55,644 nucleotides of DNA from a virus (taxonomy: Duplodnaviria; Heunggongvirae; Uroviricota; Caudoviricetes), in IMG/VR virus record IMGVR_UViG_2537561830_000005; one strand, 5' to 3'. The notes below the pieces were generated by a model. That model ran no database searches, was not told where the DNA came from, and saw nothing but the letters and a program-made list of their open reading frames with translations. How positions within the stretch are numbered: the first letter of the stretch is position 1; each line of letters starts with the position of its first letter. Positions 2,868-25,198 of the stretch are shown here, one piece after another. Both the position numbers and the translations under genes were made by a program.

Positions 2868-3089
2868 TTAATTTGAATACAATGCAATTCTCGAGGACTG
2901 AAGTTTCTCGCAATTAAAATTTATCAGTTTTACTTTCTGCTCTCTGGAAACGCCTGCTTCTTTTTTACCTGAGAGCATTTTTTCGCATTCTGATTTCGTT
3001 AGTTTAGATTTTGAATATCTTGTCCAGTTAGTAGGAGTGCCACCTTCCTTTTCAATAGTGGCGGTAATTTTATACATGAACACCTCCAT
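2868..3089 (-). CDS. ydaC: Rac prophage small protein YdaC
   Basis: ORF MEVFMYKITATIEKEGG...; start ambiguous (ATG at 3089 or 3077); overlaps the ralR 3' end. Confidence 0.65.
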   Translation of the reverse strand: MEVFMYKITATIEKEGGTPTNWTRYSKSKLTKSECEKMLSGKKEAGVSREQKVKLINFNCEKLQSSRIALYSN

Positions 3090-20326: not shown

Positions 20327-20926
20327 ATGGCGCATATACAACTGGTCAAACAAACTTCTTCTGGTTTACTTCTCCCGGCGACGCCGGAGAGTTGCGATTT
20401 TCTGCATCAAATCAAAATAGGTGAGTGGATACACGCAGACTTTAAGCGTGTGCGTAACTACGCATTCCACAAGCGTTTTTTCAAACTCCTGCAACTGGGA
20501 TTCGATTACTGGACTCCGGTCGGTGGGGCGATCACGCCTCGCGAACGAGAACTGCTGTCTGGTTTCGTTGATTACCTGTGCGAATCAGTTGGTCGGGAAC
20601 ACACGCCAGCCCTGAGTGATGCCGCAGAGCAATACCTTAACACCGTTGCGACTCGTAGAACCCGGGATACGGCGTTGCTAAAGTCGTTTGAGGCTTTCCG
20701 CGAGTGGGTAACCATTCAGGCCGGATTTTACACCGAGCATATTTATCCGGACGGTAGCCGTGGGCGTCGGGCAAAATCCATCGCTTTTGCGAATATGGAC
20801 GAAGTCGAGTTTCAGCAGGTTTATAAATCTGTACTGAATGTGCTGTGGAACTGGATTCTGTTTCGTAAATTCTCCTCTCAGGAGGAAGTTGAAAATGTGG
20901 CCGCACAACTACTGGAGTTTGCGTAA
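20327..20926 (+). CDS. phage nin-region protein, possibly DUF1367 family
   Basis: 199-aa ORF; stop overlaps the next ATG (TAATG); family assignment from recall, not verified. Confidence 0.6.
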   Translation: MAHIQLVKQTSSGLLLPATPESCDFLHQIKIGEWIHADFKRVRNYAFHKRFFKLLQLGFDYWTPVGGAITPRERELLSGFVDYLCESVGREHTPALSDAAEQYLNTVATRRTRDTALLKSFEAFREWVTIQAGFYTEHIYPDGSRGRRAKSIAFANMDEVEFQQVYKSVLNVLWNWILFRKFSSQEEVENVAAQLLEFA

Positions 20927-21216
20927 TGGTGAATTTACGTAAAGCGGCTAAAGGCCAGATGTGCCAGATCAGAATCCCTGGCTACTGCAATCACAATCCC
21001 GAAACCTCTGTGCTGGCGCATTACAGGCTGGCGGGGACGTGCGGAACAGCGACAAAACCACACGATATGCAGGCGGCGATAGCCTGTAGCTCATGCCACG
21101 ATCTAATCGACGGGCGGGTAAAAACCAGCGATTACACCAAAGAAGAATTGCGCCTGATGCATGCTGAAGGGGTTTTTCGCACACAAGAAATCTGGAGAAA
21201 GAAAGGTCATTTATGA
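20926..21216 (+). CDS. YbcO-like putative nuclease (DUF1364)
   Basis: 96-aa ORF with CQIRIPGYCN and CSSCHD motifs, resembling DLP12 YbcO. Confidence 0.7.
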   Translation: MVNLRKAAKGQMCQIRIPGYCNHNPETSVLAHYRLAGTCGTATKPHDMQAAIACSSCHDLIDGRVKTSDYTKEELRLMHAEGVFRTQEIWRKKGHL

Positions 21217-21755
21217 TTTACCCAACGAATACAGGAAAAAGCGGAGAACACCTTCGCCTCACCACGCTGGAAAGTGTCTGGATTCAGGGAAAACTACGTA
21301 TGTGGGGGCGCTGGTCGTATATTGGCGGTGGCAGGTCAGGGAATATGTTCAATCAGTTGTTGGCATCCAAAAAACTGACGAAAACAGCCATTAATGAAGC
21401 CCTGCGTAGAATGAAAAAAGCGGGAATAGAGAAAGCTGAGCTGGAAGCGTTTTTGCGAGAGATGATCAACGGCAAGCAAAAGAGCTGGCTGGCGCATTGT
21501 ACTGATGCAGAGGCGTTATGTATTGATCGAGTCATAAGTGAGGTGCTGGCAGAGCATCCAGGATTGATTTGCATTCTCCGGCAACGCTATGAAGGGCGGG
21601 GGATGACTAAGCGCAAAATGGCTGAATTGCTAAATGATGGACACCCAGAGTGGTGTTTTAGCACATGCGAAAAACGGATTGCTAATTGGTTAGCTGTTGC
21701 TGAGTATGCCCTATATATTCCCATGCGTGAATCATTTGCTGAGAAAATGGCTTGA
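21213..21755 (+). CDS. putative late-gene antiterminator (Q-like)
   Basis: 180-aa ORF after the nin-like genes and before terminators and the lysis cassette; assignment by position and weak recall. Confidence 0.5.
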   Translation: MIYPTNTGKSGEHLRLTTLESVWIQGKLRMWGRWSYIGGGRSGNMFNQLLASKKLTKTAINEALRRMKKAGIEKAELEAFLREMINGKQKSWLAHCTDAEALCIDRVISEVLAEHPGLICILRQRYEGRGMTKRKMAELLNDGHPEWCFSTCEKRIANWLAVAEYALYIPMRESFAEKMA

Positions 21756-21835
21756 TTTCTTACGTATAAACTGCTTCAATTTTGCTATGCTTCGCACAGC
21801 TGTATCGCGAGGCGGATTGCAGACATGGACATCGT

Positions 21836-21862
21836 AAAAAAACCGCTTAATGCGGTTTTTTT
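21836..21862 (+). terminator. rho-independent terminator downstream of the Q-like gene
   Basis: A-tract, AACCGC-TTAAT-GCGGTT hairpin, then T7 run. Confidence 0.6.
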
Positions 21863-22182
21863 ACGTCAGGAAAGCAGGGGAGAATGCTGCTAGTTGGGCA
21901 ACTGGTCTTTCTGCTCCAAATTATAACAGAGACCAGTTATAGTTTCGGTGCTGTGTTTTTTTTACAATATTGTGATAACACATTGCTGGCGGGAGTTTTG
22001 ATATTTCTTGGCAGGGGCTGATGATGCGTTATCCTGATGTCGTCAACTCATATAAAATGAGATGAGAGATCATTGCAGGGTGGTTTGTAATTCGCTGTTT
22101 AGCGGGACAATATGTTGTCTGATACAAGACACCCGACGCCTCAGATTACTATAATAAAGACGAAGCATCCTTTGTATTGACC

Positions 22183-22208
22183 AACCGCCTGTTTAGGCGG
22201 TTCTTTTT
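22183..22208 (+). terminator. second rho-independent terminator (tR'-like)
   Basis: AACCGCCT-GTTT-AGGCGGTT hairpin then CTTTTT; a TATAAT hexamer lies ~30 nt upstream. Confidence 0.6.
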
Positions 22209-22798
22209 GGACTGGTTTATTGTATGCCAAATGATTATTAAAAAGGTTGTGTTAATAACAAAATCCGAAATAATATGCCTGCATATTTTTATCTTGCTTA
22301 TATTCTGCATATTGTGCATAGCAGGCTCATCCCTGCAATCAAAACTGTATGATGAGTATTTTTTTTTTCCTTTTTTCCAGTCATCTGATGATGACCTGCT
22401 TCTTTTTAATCCGGATCGACATCAGTTTTTTAAGATAATTCCTGCGAGTTATATGCATAAATACCACAAACTCCGCATTTTATGTGGTTGGGAGTTGCCG
22501 GGCGCGCAGTGAGTTTGCTAAGAAAACTCCTGCATGGTGAATCCCCCTGTGCGGTGGGGTGATACCATTAACCTTTTCTGTCGCCGACAGGTATCACGAA
22601 CATTTTGTTCACCGGGAGGCACCCGGCACCATGCACTTCAATAGATTCTCTCCACATTATGGATATTCTTTCAGAATATCCCACGCAGACTTTGTGTAAA
22701 TGTTAACAAATGTGCGTTTTATTTGATCTGATTCGCTGTTTGAGCGTCCAAAACAACGGTATATATAATCCTTTACTATATGACATATGTGAGGAAAA

Positions 22799-23227
22799 AT
22801 GGGTTTTCGTAGCGCATCAATTCTTACGTTGATTATTAGTGGGATTATTATCGGGTGCACTGATGCTGTATCGACAAATTATCATGACCGTACATCATAT
22901 TACTCCGATAAAGCAATAGAGACACAGTATGTGAGTTCATCTGAACGTACTTCTGATGTTAGTGAGGATATCCGTCTGTATGCCCATCAAATCAAGAGCG
23001 CCATCGAAAAACAGTTCGGGGATGCGAGTAAGTATTCAGGAAAAGAGTGTACACTGAGAATGCATATGGCCCCGAATGGCCTTCTACTGGAGGTTAAAAG
23101 AGAAAGTGGAGACCTCGATTTATGTCGTGAAGCGATGAATGCGATAAAGAATGCTGATATACCTGCCCCCCCTTCGCCGGAAGTATATAAAGTATTTCAA
23201 AATGGGGTGCTGGATTTTAAACCCTGA
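22799..23227 (+). CDS. phage lipoprotein, paralog 1
   Basis: Signal peptide with lipobox IIGC; C-terminal domain shared with paralog 2; GAGGAAAA RBS. Confidence 0.7.
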   Translation: MGFRSASILTLIISGIIIGCTDAVSTNYHDRTSYYSDKAIETQYVSSSERTSDVSEDIRLYAHQIKSAIEKQFGDASKYSGKECTLRMHMAPNGLLLEVKRESGDLDLCREAMNAIKNADIPAPPSPEVYKVFQNGVLDFKP

Positions 23228-23377
23228 TATTTATTGTTTTGTAATAAACGGTTTCGGCTTAGGTTTGTTCTGACACAGCTACGGCACTGAGCTAAATTTA
23301 GCGGATAGTCAGCTCTGAGCCAGTGGCGGACGTAACAACTACTATTGCTGAGATTTTAATGGATTGAGGAGCAAGAA

Positions 23378-23773
23378 GTGGGATTAAAGAAAATCGTTAT
23401 GTTGACTTTTTGGGTCGGTTTTGTTGCGGGATGCACACCTTTACACCCTTCAGATTGCCACAAAACTACTGCTACAGGTAGTTGCAGTTCAGGACGCTGG
23501 GATGATCAGGATGAATGGGGGGCGCAAGCGCGGGGAATCAGAGCTGCAATTAATGCCAAACTTGATGAGCCGCATAACTGGAAAGGGAAAAAATGCAGGT
23601 TGCATATGGAATTCTCTCAGGATGGCACGGCGTTAAAAATATCTACCAGTAACGGTGATAAAGCCTATTGCGAAGCGATAAAGTCCGCAGCTCATAAAGC
23701 CAAATTTCCGGCCTTCAACAATCCGGAAGTCTACAGAGATTTTCAGAAATCTGGCTTTGACATGCGAGGTTAG
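23378..23773 (+). CDS. phage lipoprotein, paralog 2
   Basis: GTG start with GAGGAG RBS; lipobox VAGC; C-terminal domain homologous to paralog 1. Confidence 0.7.
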   Translation: MGLKKIVMLTFWVGFVAGCTPLHPSDCHKTTATGSCSSGRWDDQDEWGAQARGIRAAINAKLDEPHNWKGKKCRLHMEFSQDGTALKISTSNGDKAYCEAIKSAAHKAKFPAFNNPEVYRDFQKSGFDMRG

Positions 23774-24024
23774 CTCTTCAATTACTATATCTCATTCATA
23801 GCAAACTGACAGATTTGATGATGTTCTATATACGAAACCTGTGATGTCAAGTCTGAGCTAATACAAATAAACATAATATCAGAGAAATACATTTTATTAG
23901 CTCGCTACGGCGAGCTTTTTATATTGCATCGTCTCCAGCATATATATCAATTAAGGCTCTGATTGATGTGTCTGAAAGCCTACACATAATAACTATGCCA
24001 TCCGTTCCGTGCGGAGGTGAGGCT

Positions 24025-24240
24025 ATGAAATCCATGGACAAAATTTCAACAGGCATTGCCTACGGCACCTCCGCAGGCAGTGCTGGCTACTGGTTTTTAC
24101 AGTTGCTCGATAGAGTAACTCCGTCACAGTGGGCTGCAATCGGTGTGCTGGGTAGTCTGGTATTTGGCCTGCTGACGTACCTGACAAACCTTTATTTCAA
24201 GATTAAAGAAGATAAGCGCAAGGCTGCGAGAGGTGAATAA
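24025..24240 (+). CDS. holin, EssD-like
   Basis: 71-aa product [26 protein letters not shown]... with GGAGGTGAGG RBS; the track ORF starts upstream. Confidence 0.85.
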
Positions 24241-24737
24241 TGCCTCCATCATTACGAAAAGTCGTTGCTGCTGCTATTGGTGGCGGAGCAATTGCTATAG
24301 CATCAGTGTTAATCACTGGCCCAAGTGGTAACGATGGTCTGGAAGGTGTCAGCTACATACCATACAAAGATATTGTTGGTGTATGGACTGTATGTCACGG
24401 GCATACAGGAAAAGACATCATGCTCGGTAAAACGTATACCAAAGCAGAATGCAAAACACTCTTGAATAAAGACCTTGCCACGGTCGCCAGACAAATTAAC
24501 CCGTACATCAAAGTCGATATACCGGAAACAACGCGCGGCGCTCTTTACTCATTCGTTTACAACGTGGGTGCTGGCAATTTCAGAACATCGACGCTTCTTC
24601 GCAAAATAAACCAGGGCGATATCAAAGGCGCATGTGATCAGCTACGTCGCTGGACATATGCTGGCGGTAAGCAATGGAAAGGTCTCATGACTCGTCGTGA
24701 GATTGAGCGTGAAATCTGTTTGTGGGGTCAGCAATGA
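24240..24737 (+). CDS. endolysin (phage lysozyme, RrrD-like, probable signal-anchor-release type)
   Basis: 165-aa ORF with a hydrophobic N-terminus; start overlaps the holin stop. Confidence 0.9.
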
Positions 24738-25198
24738 ACAGAGTAACCGCGATTATCTCCGCTCTGGTTATCTGCATCGTCGTCTGCCTGTCATGGGGTG
24801 TTAATCATTACCGTGATAACGCCATCGCCTACAAAGAACAGCGCGACAAAAATGCCAGAGAACTGAAGCTGGCGAACGCGGCAATTACTGACATGCAGAT
24901 GCGTCAGCGTGATGTTGCTGCGCTCGATGCAAAATACACGAAGGAGTTAGCTGATGCGAAAGCTGAAAATGATGTTCTGCGTGATGATGTTGCCGCTGGT
25001 CGTCGTCGGTTGCACATCAAAGCAGTCTGTCAGTCAGTGCGTGAAGCCACCACCGCCTCCGGCGTGGATAATGCAGCCTCCCCCCGACTGGCAGACACCG
25101 CTGAACGGGATTATTTCACCCTCCGGGAACGACTGGTAATGATGCAGGCCCAACTTGAAGGTGCTCAGCAATACATAACCGAGCAGTGTTTAAAGTAA
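24734..25198 (+). CDS. i-spanin Rz
   Basis: ATG at 24734 overlapping the endolysin stop; N-terminal TM helix; hosts Rz1 in the +1 frame. Confidence 0.85.
24954..25139 (+). CDS. o-spanin Rz1 lipoprotein, embedded in Rz
   Basis: AAGGAG RBS, lipobox VVGC, proline-rich; fully inside Rz in another frame. Confidence 0.8.

Follow-up and report, generated by a model that had tools for sequence, protein, structure and literature searches.

Two lipoproteins of a Rac-family prophage carry a stand-alone TolA domain III and are possible decoys of TolA

Two adjacent genes, here called gene A and gene B, were analyzed in the virus record IMGVR_UViG_2537561830_000005 (Caudoviricetes), a Rac-family lambdoid prophage of 55,644 nucleotides (nt) that is referred to below, over its full length, as the window. 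Both genes are intact open reading frames (ORFs) on the plus strand, and they encode lipoprotein precursors of 142 amino acids (aa) for gene A (22799-23227, ATG start) and 131 aa for gene B (23378-23773, GTG start). The C-terminal domain shared by the two proteins is domain III of TolA (TolAIII). We propose, with slightly less than even confidence, that A and B are TolA decoys that are tethered to the outer membrane and intercept Tol-dependent colicins and filamentous phages. Computed support for this proposal consists of the identity and fold of the domain, its cysteine pair, an intact beta3 strand, a lipobox followed by a residue other than Asp, purifying selection, and carriage as a solo gene on prophages, plasmids and chromosomal islands.

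The A and B proteins matched each other by BLASTP (E 2e-18, 29% identity). Their common region spans roughly 88 residues (A 55-142, B 44-131; 28% identity) and contains two invariant cysteines and the motif PEVY..FQ, as had been noticed in an earlier reading of the letters and ORFs (the sequence-only reading). Both proteins were assigned to Pfam family PF06519 (cutoff 25 bits), A with 82.6 bits (E 2.4e-23, model positions 4-96 of 96) and B with 54.6 bits (E 1.3e-14, model positions 10-92 of 96); the other Pfam families found at E ≤ 1 were just the related TonB C-terminal fold TonB_2 for A and a chance match to But2 (0.15) for B. Sequence searches of the PDB with A and B returned TolAIII entries exclusively (1S62, 3QDP/3QDR, 2X9A, 1TOL and recent TolQRA structures). 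Structures predicted with AlphaFold2 (AF2) had predicted local distance difference test (pLDDT) scores of about 90 or higher over residues 51-142 of A and 44-131 of B, the N-termini being disordered. When these models were compared with the PDB using Foldseek, A fitted 2x9a_B with a root-mean-square deviation (rmsd) of 0.7 Å and a TMt of 0.95, and B fitted 3qdp with an rmsd of 1.1 Å and a TMt of 0.92; the models superposed on the TolAIII of the IF1-g3p, colicin A and M13-g3p complexes at 0.7-2.0 Å. Ungapped identity to residues 334-421 of Escherichia coli TolA was 59% for A 55-142 and 31% for B 44-131, both proteins end where TolA ends, at its last residue, and their conserved cysteine pair corresponds to the C363-C388 disulfide of TolA. 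The sequence-only reading had left the family unrecognized, and the structure prediction and domain search that it proposed lead, by Pfam, PDB sequence search and fold alike, to TolAIII and to no link with Cor or Llp. It had also named a match to a structural virion protein as an outcome that would count against it; the domain is TolAIII instead.

Neither A nor B is TolA itself. Both lack the inner-membrane anchor (domain I) and the helical domain II, rich in Ala, Lys and Glu, of authentic TolA; they are 142 and 131 aa long compared with the 421 aa of E. coli TolA, and both genes lie outside the tolQRA-tolB-pal operon. Matches to the NCBIfam models of TolA were confined to about the last 80-100 model positions: NCBIfam NF007065 (full-length TolA) was missed by both (A 107.8 and B 53.7 bits against 213, over model positions 293-386 and 304-382 of 387), and TIGR02794 was exceeded in score by A (75.6 versus 59.45) over the last 98 of its 362 positions only, with B below the cutoff at 47.2. 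The proteins were assigned to PHROG 5772, which is labeled "unknown function", and neither matched any known or candidate defense model of PADLOC-DB v2 at E ≤ 1.

Both genes have the features expected of lipoprotein genes. A Shine-Dalgarno sequence precedes each start codon (GAGGA at 22791-22795 for A, GAGGAG at 23366-23371 for B). In A, a signal peptide with lipobox (codons 1-20, Cys20 at 22856-22858) is followed by a disordered linker (residues 21-54) and TolAIII (residues 55-142, 22961-23224); in B, the signal peptide and lipobox (codons 1-19) are followed by a cysteine-containing linker (residues 20-43) and TolAIII (residues 44-131, 23507-23770). As the sequence-only reading had stated, both proteins carry lipobox signal peptides, with a positively charged n-region (R4 in A, K4K5 in B), a hydrophobic core and the lipobox itself (IIIG-C20 in A, FVAG-C19 in B), and their N-terminal regions differ, the two linkers being unrelated. 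The lipobox is retained in divergent homologues despite their different signal peptides and linkers. In E. coli, a lipoprotein is sorted to the outer membrane when the residue following the lipidated cysteine (+2) is not Asp. This residue is Thr in both A and B, and the two are therefore predicted to be outer-membrane lipoproteins.

This organization is hidden in current annotation. RefSeq names gene A tolA and often treats it as a pseudogene. On identical DNA (NZ_CP033250.1), RefSeq/PGAP labels A a tolA pseudogene ("incomplete; missing N-terminus") and starts B at an internal ATG (23399, giving 124 aa), 21 nt or 7 codons late, with loss of the Lys-Lys n-region, while a B-like gene of plasmids is annotated 12 codons too far upstream; as a result the lipoprotein precursor, and with it the lipoprotein nature of the family, is obscured. 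In the linker of B (residues 19-43, 23432-23506), the motif CxPLHPSxCHKTTAxGSC was conserved across the B clade and includes the extra cysteines C27 and C36, which possibly form a small disulfide loop, in a part of the model where AF2 confidence is low.

Both genes are under purifying selection. The ratio of nonsynonymous to synonymous substitution rates (dN/dS) of A was 0.35 when compared with an 80%-identical variant (0.29 within the domain), and that of B was 0.08-0.12 when compared with plasmid and Enterobacter homologues (0.06-0.09 within the domain). The domain of A is roughly as near to E. coli TolAIII as to any other match, with 59% identity to TolA versus 28% to B, whereas B falls in a distinct clade of short lipoproteins from Erwinia, Klebsiella and Enterobacter. 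The pair was described in the sequence-only reading as duplicated and diverging; given that A is nearer to TolA than to B and that B belongs to a separate lineage, a local tandem duplication was rejected.

Interface residues of TolAIII were taken from the colicin A-TolAIII structure (PMC3365938) and from a study of competition among colicin N (ColN), g3p and TolB (PMC4339652). The beta3 edge strand of TolAIII is where g3p-N1, ColN and TolB each add a beta-strand, and substitution D418P or K420P abolishes binding (PMC4339652). This strand (L417-D418-F419-K420 in TolA) is identical in A (LDFK) and conservatively changed and proline-free in B (FDMR). Along helix alpha2, A was identical to TolA at 11 of 16 positions, including Y340, and B at 4 of 16, with Y340 replaced by Gln. 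The strand bound by colicin A (LLDIKP) reads LLEVKR in A, which keeps K379 and K396, and ALKIST in B, in which all three lysines that make cation-pi contacts are lost. As judged from these residues, A seems to imitate E. coli TolA faithfully at both of its binding faces, and B appears remodeled on the colicin A face and on the alpha2 surface, so that its ligand range probably differs from that of A and the pair probably covers different sets of ligands.

An exhaustive profile search of 1.84 billion representative sequences returned 590 matches at E ≤ 1e-3. Among the best 149 of these, 96 were no longer than 170 aa, and 64 of those 96 had a lipobox; at 50% identity, at least 59 lipobox-bearing clusters were present among the top matches. 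A family alignment was made of 61 short TolAIII lipoproteins (A, B and 59 representatives of 110-170 aa; 62 rows with the TolA reference). Its beta3 consensus was LDFK, and none of the 61 proteins had Pro at position 417, 419 or 420. Y340 was retained in 48 and the cysteine pair in 58-59 of the 61, the linker varied from 8 to 59 residues (median 25), and 51 of the 62 aligned sequences, with the TolA row included, ended exactly at the last residue of TolA. Asp did not occur at +2 in any of the 61, and all of them are therefore predicted outer-membrane lipoproteins. Named members came from Erwinia, Klebsiella, Enterobacter, Kosakonia and Pseudescherichia and carried automatic names only. Two longer relatives, P0173 (323 aa) and P0178 (235 aa, with lipobox), matched the profile in two stretches, and these two as well as P0205, P0245, P0277 and P0280 had secretory signal peptides in place of a TolA-type anchor, which suggests that further secreted or lipid-anchored TolAIII architectures may exist.

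In the literature searched, no study of a natural, lipid-anchored TolAIII borne by a mobile element was found, and no experiment on any member of the family. Three papers were considered as possible mentions and set aside: a microarray paper on O157 in soil and water and a paper on the serum resistome of sequence type ST131 both concern chromosomal tolA, and a paper on ciprofloxacin and enterohemorrhagic E. coli ties "TolA" to the tail-fiber gene EDL933_2012, for which its supplement shows a different family.

Gene A was present (coverage ≥ 80%) in 893 of 5426 complete E. coli genomes (16%), almost always on the chromosome, and gene B in 1263 (23%), at 826 chromosomal and 536 plasmid places; the exact B protein sequence was indexed in more than 36,000 blocks of an assembly collection. 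The trio formed by A, B and the downstream holin gene was found with identical spacing in 8 different contexts, behind two types of antiterminator and ahead of two endolysin modules, among them phage mEp460 and a backbone of lambda type that encodes Nu1/GpA and Bor. This pattern agrees with the moron position proposed in the sequence-only reading, the block occupying the cargo slot between Q and holin and traveling behind different Q genes and before different endolysin modules. The 80%-identical variant of A stood alone in a prophage resembling those that carry Shiga toxin (Stx) genes, after Q, a methyltransferase gene and tRNA-Ile/Arg and before a nanS-like esterase gene, a slot which we take to be the one where stx genes lie in Stx phages.

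B-like genes with 87-88% nucleotide identity were found 68 nt 3' of a relaxase (nikB-like) gene on IncK2/Z (MPF_I) conjugative plasmids (L001 3444-3875; L029, L030 and L031 2495-2926). They were also found on pO157-like IncF virulence plasmids, between the psiB/psiA/hok region and toxB (L002 5995-6426; L032 2495-2926), in one case flanked by copies of IS1203. In Enterobacter, Citrobacter and Serratia, solo B-like genes occurred in unrelated and variable chromosomal neighborhoods. One such solo B-like gene (locus L010/L011 6001-8736) adjoined genes for GmrSD_N-domain and HEPN-domain proteins, 3' of nrdDG-like genes, in what is likely a defense island. No conserved partner gene was found among the Enterobacter, Citrobacter, Serratia and GmrSD-adjacent neighborhoods, and the protein thus appears to act alone.

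In TolA, an inner-membrane protein, domain III forms the globular tip. TolB binds this tip in normal physiology, and the group A colicins (A, N and K) as well as the g3p of Ff, IF1 and IKe need it for entry. Periplasmic TolAIII produced in wild-type cells reportedly (Levengood-Freyermuth et al. 1993) renders them tolerant to colicins E1, E2, E3 and A and not to colicin D. When overproduced in the periplasm, TolAIII makes cells leaky, and this has been used in biotechnology for the release of periplasmic proteins from E. coli. TolAIII is a hub bound by TolB (~40 µM), ColN (~1 µM), colicin A and g3p-N1 (PMC3365938, PMC4339652). Periplasmic g3p-N1 sequesters TolA, which results in resistance to colicin A and in a 4-log drop in phage uptake (PMC10424213). 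From the role of TolAIII as a hub, the protection afforded by g3p-N1 and the effects of periplasmic TolAIII, we infer that A and B are natural tethered decoys.

In the proposed mechanism, A and B, in each of which a flexible linker some 25-35 residues long joins a Sec/signal peptidase II signal peptide to a stand-alone TolAIII, would be held at the inner face of the outer membrane, where the translocation domain of a colicin or g3p-N1 emerges. The invader would be captured by beta-strand augmentation, as TolA does it, and without coupling to the TolQR motor it would be pulled no further in, so that the lysogen or plasmid host would tolerate Tol-dependent colicins and resist infection by filamentous phages. 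Expression would come from the genes' own promoter in the lysogen and, after induction, also by read-through from the late promoter. Given that ColN binds about 40-fold more tightly than TolB, a decoy could catch invaders without titrating TolB or crippling Tol-Pal. The patchy, mobile and multi-lineage distribution of the genes fits a conflict gene better than a housekeeping gene.

Several points weigh against a decoy function. Binding, localization and phenotype are all inferred for A and B, and the evidence for expression in the lysogen is a promoter pattern match only. The conservation of beta3 and alpha2 suits the binding of TolB equally well, and the leakiness brought about by overproduced TolAIII means that the natural proteins could carry a cost or serve another purpose. 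Colicins kill with few molecules, so that a decoy must capture nearly all of them, and filamentous phages are relevant to piliated hosts only. The direct contact of colicins E2-E9 is with TolB and not with TolA, and for colicin E1 the use of TolA domain II is reported; protection would therefore be partial at best. Finally, B has neither Y340 nor the three lysines that make cation-pi contacts at the colicin A site; it may not bind the known E. coli ligands at all.

The main alternative to a decoy function would be the modulation of Tol-Pal, in which tethered TolAIII binds the N-terminal TolA box of TolB, competes with TolA, and tunes or weakens the mobilization of Pal; vesicle numbers could rise, the outer membrane could become leakier, or its disruption and the release of phage at lysis could be eased when the proteins are made from the late transcript. 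We consider this unlikely, although the family-wide conserved site is the beta3/alpha2 groove that TolB uses, and the D418P and K420P substitutions of TolA block TolB binding and produce a full tol phenotype (PMC4339652). The leakage of periplasmic proteins from E. coli overproducing periplasmic TolAIII agrees with such a role, as does the invariable position of the A-B cassette directly before the holin gene, where it would be co-transcribed with the lysis genes after induction, and a review of Tol-Pal suggests that vesiculation can be regulated through the TolB-TolA or TolB-Pal interactions. A lysis-helper role cannot, however, be the general function of the family, since solo B-like genes occur on chromosomes and plasmids with no lysis genes nearby, and the phage already has a complete holin-endolysin-spanin set. 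The binding of TolB to TolAIII is moreover weak (~40 µM), and a weakened host envelope would be costly to a prophage or plasmid that is carried along. Somewhat more doubtful still is that TolAIII serves here as a general module for capturing beta-strands of another ligand and is protective outside the classical colicin and Ff ligands; it could act, for example, on a periplasmic step of another toxin, such as a type VI or contact-dependent effector or a klebicin- or cloacin-like bacteriocin from other genera, or on such a step in the DNA entry of a tailed phage. B and its clade have alpha2 and colicin A surfaces very unlike those of host TolA and are nevertheless highly constrained (domain dN/dS 0.06-0.09), the family is highly diverse (at least 59 lipobox clusters at 50% identity) and includes genera with bacteriocins of their own, and one copy lies beside GmrSD/HEPN defense genes. 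No candidate ligand or conserved neighbor gene was identified, however, and all solved complexes of TolAIII are with g3p, colicins or TolB.

The sequence-only reading had itself favored superinfection exclusion or receptor blocking of the Cor or Llp type, in which the lipoproteins would deny tailed phages the use of FhuA, LamB or OmpC. A role in protection or exclusion remains plausible; the Cor/Llp mechanism, for which no sequence or fold link was found, is very improbable. The resemblance is one of setting: Cor (phi80/N15/mEp167), Llp (T5) and Bor (lambda) are likewise small outer-membrane lipoproteins encoded by siphophage accessory genes near the late or lysis region, A and B occupy the lambdoid moron slot as Cor and Bor do, one related context has a Bor gene close by, and all three known proteins protect or benefit the host cell. 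In sequence and fold they are unrelated to A and B, whose similarity is limited to the TolA and TonB C-terminal domains, and Cor and Llp act as plugs on the periplasmic side of FhuA, whereas the known partners of TolAIII are periplasmic beta-strands and not barrel plugs. Carriage on plasmids and chromosomes of several genera also tracks no single phage receptor. Because the domain would mimic the import hub TolA, the targets of an exclusion function would be group A colicins and filamentous phages rather than FhuA, LamB or OmpC. The PGAP pseudogene flag raises the further idea that A is non-functional debris, a decayed 3' fragment of tolA, which we regard as scarcely credible and have rejected: the ORF is intact, begins with a canonical lipoprotein signal peptide and has a ribosome-binding site in front, variants in which the signal peptide differs still carry the lipobox, dN/dS within the domain is 0.29, and the gene is found at ≥ 80% coverage in 893 genomes. 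The 59% nucleotide identity of the A domain to the 3' end of E. coli tolA shows, in addition, that A is not a recent fragment.

The decoy proposal has parallels in, and differences from, several known systems. With TolAIII of TolA (PF06519; 1TOL, 2X9A, 3QDR, 1S62), A and B share fold, family, disulfide pair, C-terminal end and beta3 edge strand, but where TolA has domain I, which couples it to TolQR, and the helical domain II, A and B have a short disordered linker that follows a lipoprotein signal peptide, and they are encoded on mobile elements. A TolAIII that lacks domain I and hangs from the outer membrane cannot be energized. Engineered periplasmic TolAIII (Levengood-Freyermuth et al. 1993; Wan and Baneyx 1998) likewise places a free TolAIII beside native TolA; it is a soluble, overproduced laboratory construct, while A and B are natural, predicted to be lipid-anchored, diverged from host TolA and under selection. 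The pIII/g3p-N1 blocker of Ff is another case in which a mobile element protects the infected cell, here against colicins and additional filamentous phage, through the TolA-g3p interaction (PMC10424213), although with mirror-image logic: pIII masks the host receptor TolA, and A and B, as imitations of TolA, would cover up the invader. Stx and other cargo between Q and holin occupy the same genomic slot with flanking STnc100-like repeats, but the cargo is a toxin in the case of Stx and, in the case of A and B, an envelope protein belonging to the Tol system of the bacterium itself. Already known are the domain family, the concept of prophage exclusion lipoproteins and the laboratory effect of free TolAIII.

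Taken across all carriers, a broader and more tentative reading is that short, outer-membrane-tethered TolAIII lipoproteins form a widespread class of decoy receptors, carried throughout the Enterobacterales by chromosomal islands, prophages and plasmids of the I-complex and pO157 types, which disarm Tol-dependent bacteriocins and pilus-specific filamentous phages by posing as the import hub of the host; the copy behind the relaxase gene on I-complex plasmids would shield the host from the phage that the plasmid attracts, and the class could explain part of the high tolerance to group A colicins that is natural among wild E. coli. The pili of I-complex plasmids are the receptors of filamentous phage IF1. 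The solved structure closest to A is that of TolAIII bound to the g3p of IF1, and a B-like gene is carried by I-complex plasmids; a link between the two is conjecture.

About one quarter of complete E. coli genomes hold extra TolAIII lipoprotein copies on prophages or plasmids, of which no mention was found in the literature searched, even though few entry points into E. coli have been studied as thoroughly as TolAIII, whose complexes with M13 g3p, IF1 g3p and colicin A have been solved. If A and B are decoys, they would represent a new form of passive bacteriocin tolerance and anti-phage defense by receptor mimicry inside the periplasm, with a bearing on colicin ecology, colicin and phage therapeutics, phage display hosts, and the relation of plasmids to male-specific phages. 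If they tune Tol-Pal instead, no natural regulator of that system would have been known before them. Both hypotheses can be tested in K-12, which is without the genes.

The sequence-only reading had placed two lipoprotein ORFs between the antiterminator and the lysis cassette, and the boundaries of the ORFs and the identity of their flanks were confirmed. Upstream lies a gene for a DUF1133/Q-like antiterminator (21213-21755, plus strand; Pfam DUF1133, E 7e-107, with Phage_antitermQ borderline at 26.4 bits against a cutoff of 26), and downstream a P21-type holin gene (24025-24240, plus strand; Pfam Phage_holin_2_1, E 2e-35), which is followed by lysozyme and Rz/Rz1. The roughly 1 kb between the Q-like gene and A (21756-22798) had no convincing ORF, a 111-aa ORF with a TTG start (22177-22512) being without a Pfam match. 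A promoter-like site at 22126-22155, followed by a strong terminator-like hairpin at 22183-22202, is possibly the late promoter and its terminator. No tRNA genes were found in the window; related prophages have tRNA genes and a DUF3927 mini-ORF before the cassette.

The A-B pair has a promoter-like site in front and a terminator-like hairpin behind, both from pattern matches only, which is the classic moron arrangement. The sigma-70 promoter-like site (TTGAGC-18-TATAAT, 22740-22769, plus strand) lies 30 nt before the start codon of A and matches 10 of 12 consensus positions, in a region that holds 11 such pattern matches versus 6.5 ± 2.1 expected. Between B and the holin gene, an intrinsic-terminator-like element (23899-23922, plus strand) consists of the hairpin AGCTCGC-TACG-GCGAGCT (23899-23916; 7-bp stem with 5 GC pairs) and a T tract (TTTTAT).

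An STnc100-like small RNA (sRNA) or repeat element (22502-22688, plus strand; Rfam RF02076, 86.6 bits against a gathering cutoff of 47) ends 111 nt 5' of gene A. Elements of this kind (about 200 nt, with scores of up to 172 bits elsewhere) were found just 5' of the A-B cassette in every prophage context checked, and those outside the window were assigned to Rfam STnc100 at L014 4483-4695 and 6454-7433, at 4121-4311 in L015, L018 and L022, and at L004 4799-4989. The Stx-like prophage with the solo A variant had five copies, one right after the A-type gene and four in tandem (spacing of about 260 nt) before the esterase gene. In lambdoid late regions, the cargo slot seems to be framed by STnc100-like repeats.

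The assignment of the window to the Rac family draws on two features. The trkG gene lies directly after Rz/Rz1, as in the Rac prophage of K-12, and the sRNA RalA was found at 2893-3071 (plus strand; Rfam RF02694, 225 bits); RalA is the type I antitoxin of the ralR/ralA pair of Rac, and its presence confirms a Rac-family prophage. When positions 20327-25198 of the window were compared with K-12 Rac (NC_000913.3 1422752-1423782), ydaW of K-12 was found to run directly into the rzpR pseudogene, rzoR and trkG, and from this junction the segment with DUF1367, YbcO, the Q-like gene, the TolAIII cassette, holin and endolysin has been deleted in K-12. MG1655, in which Rac is without the cassette, is a natural null host for A and B.

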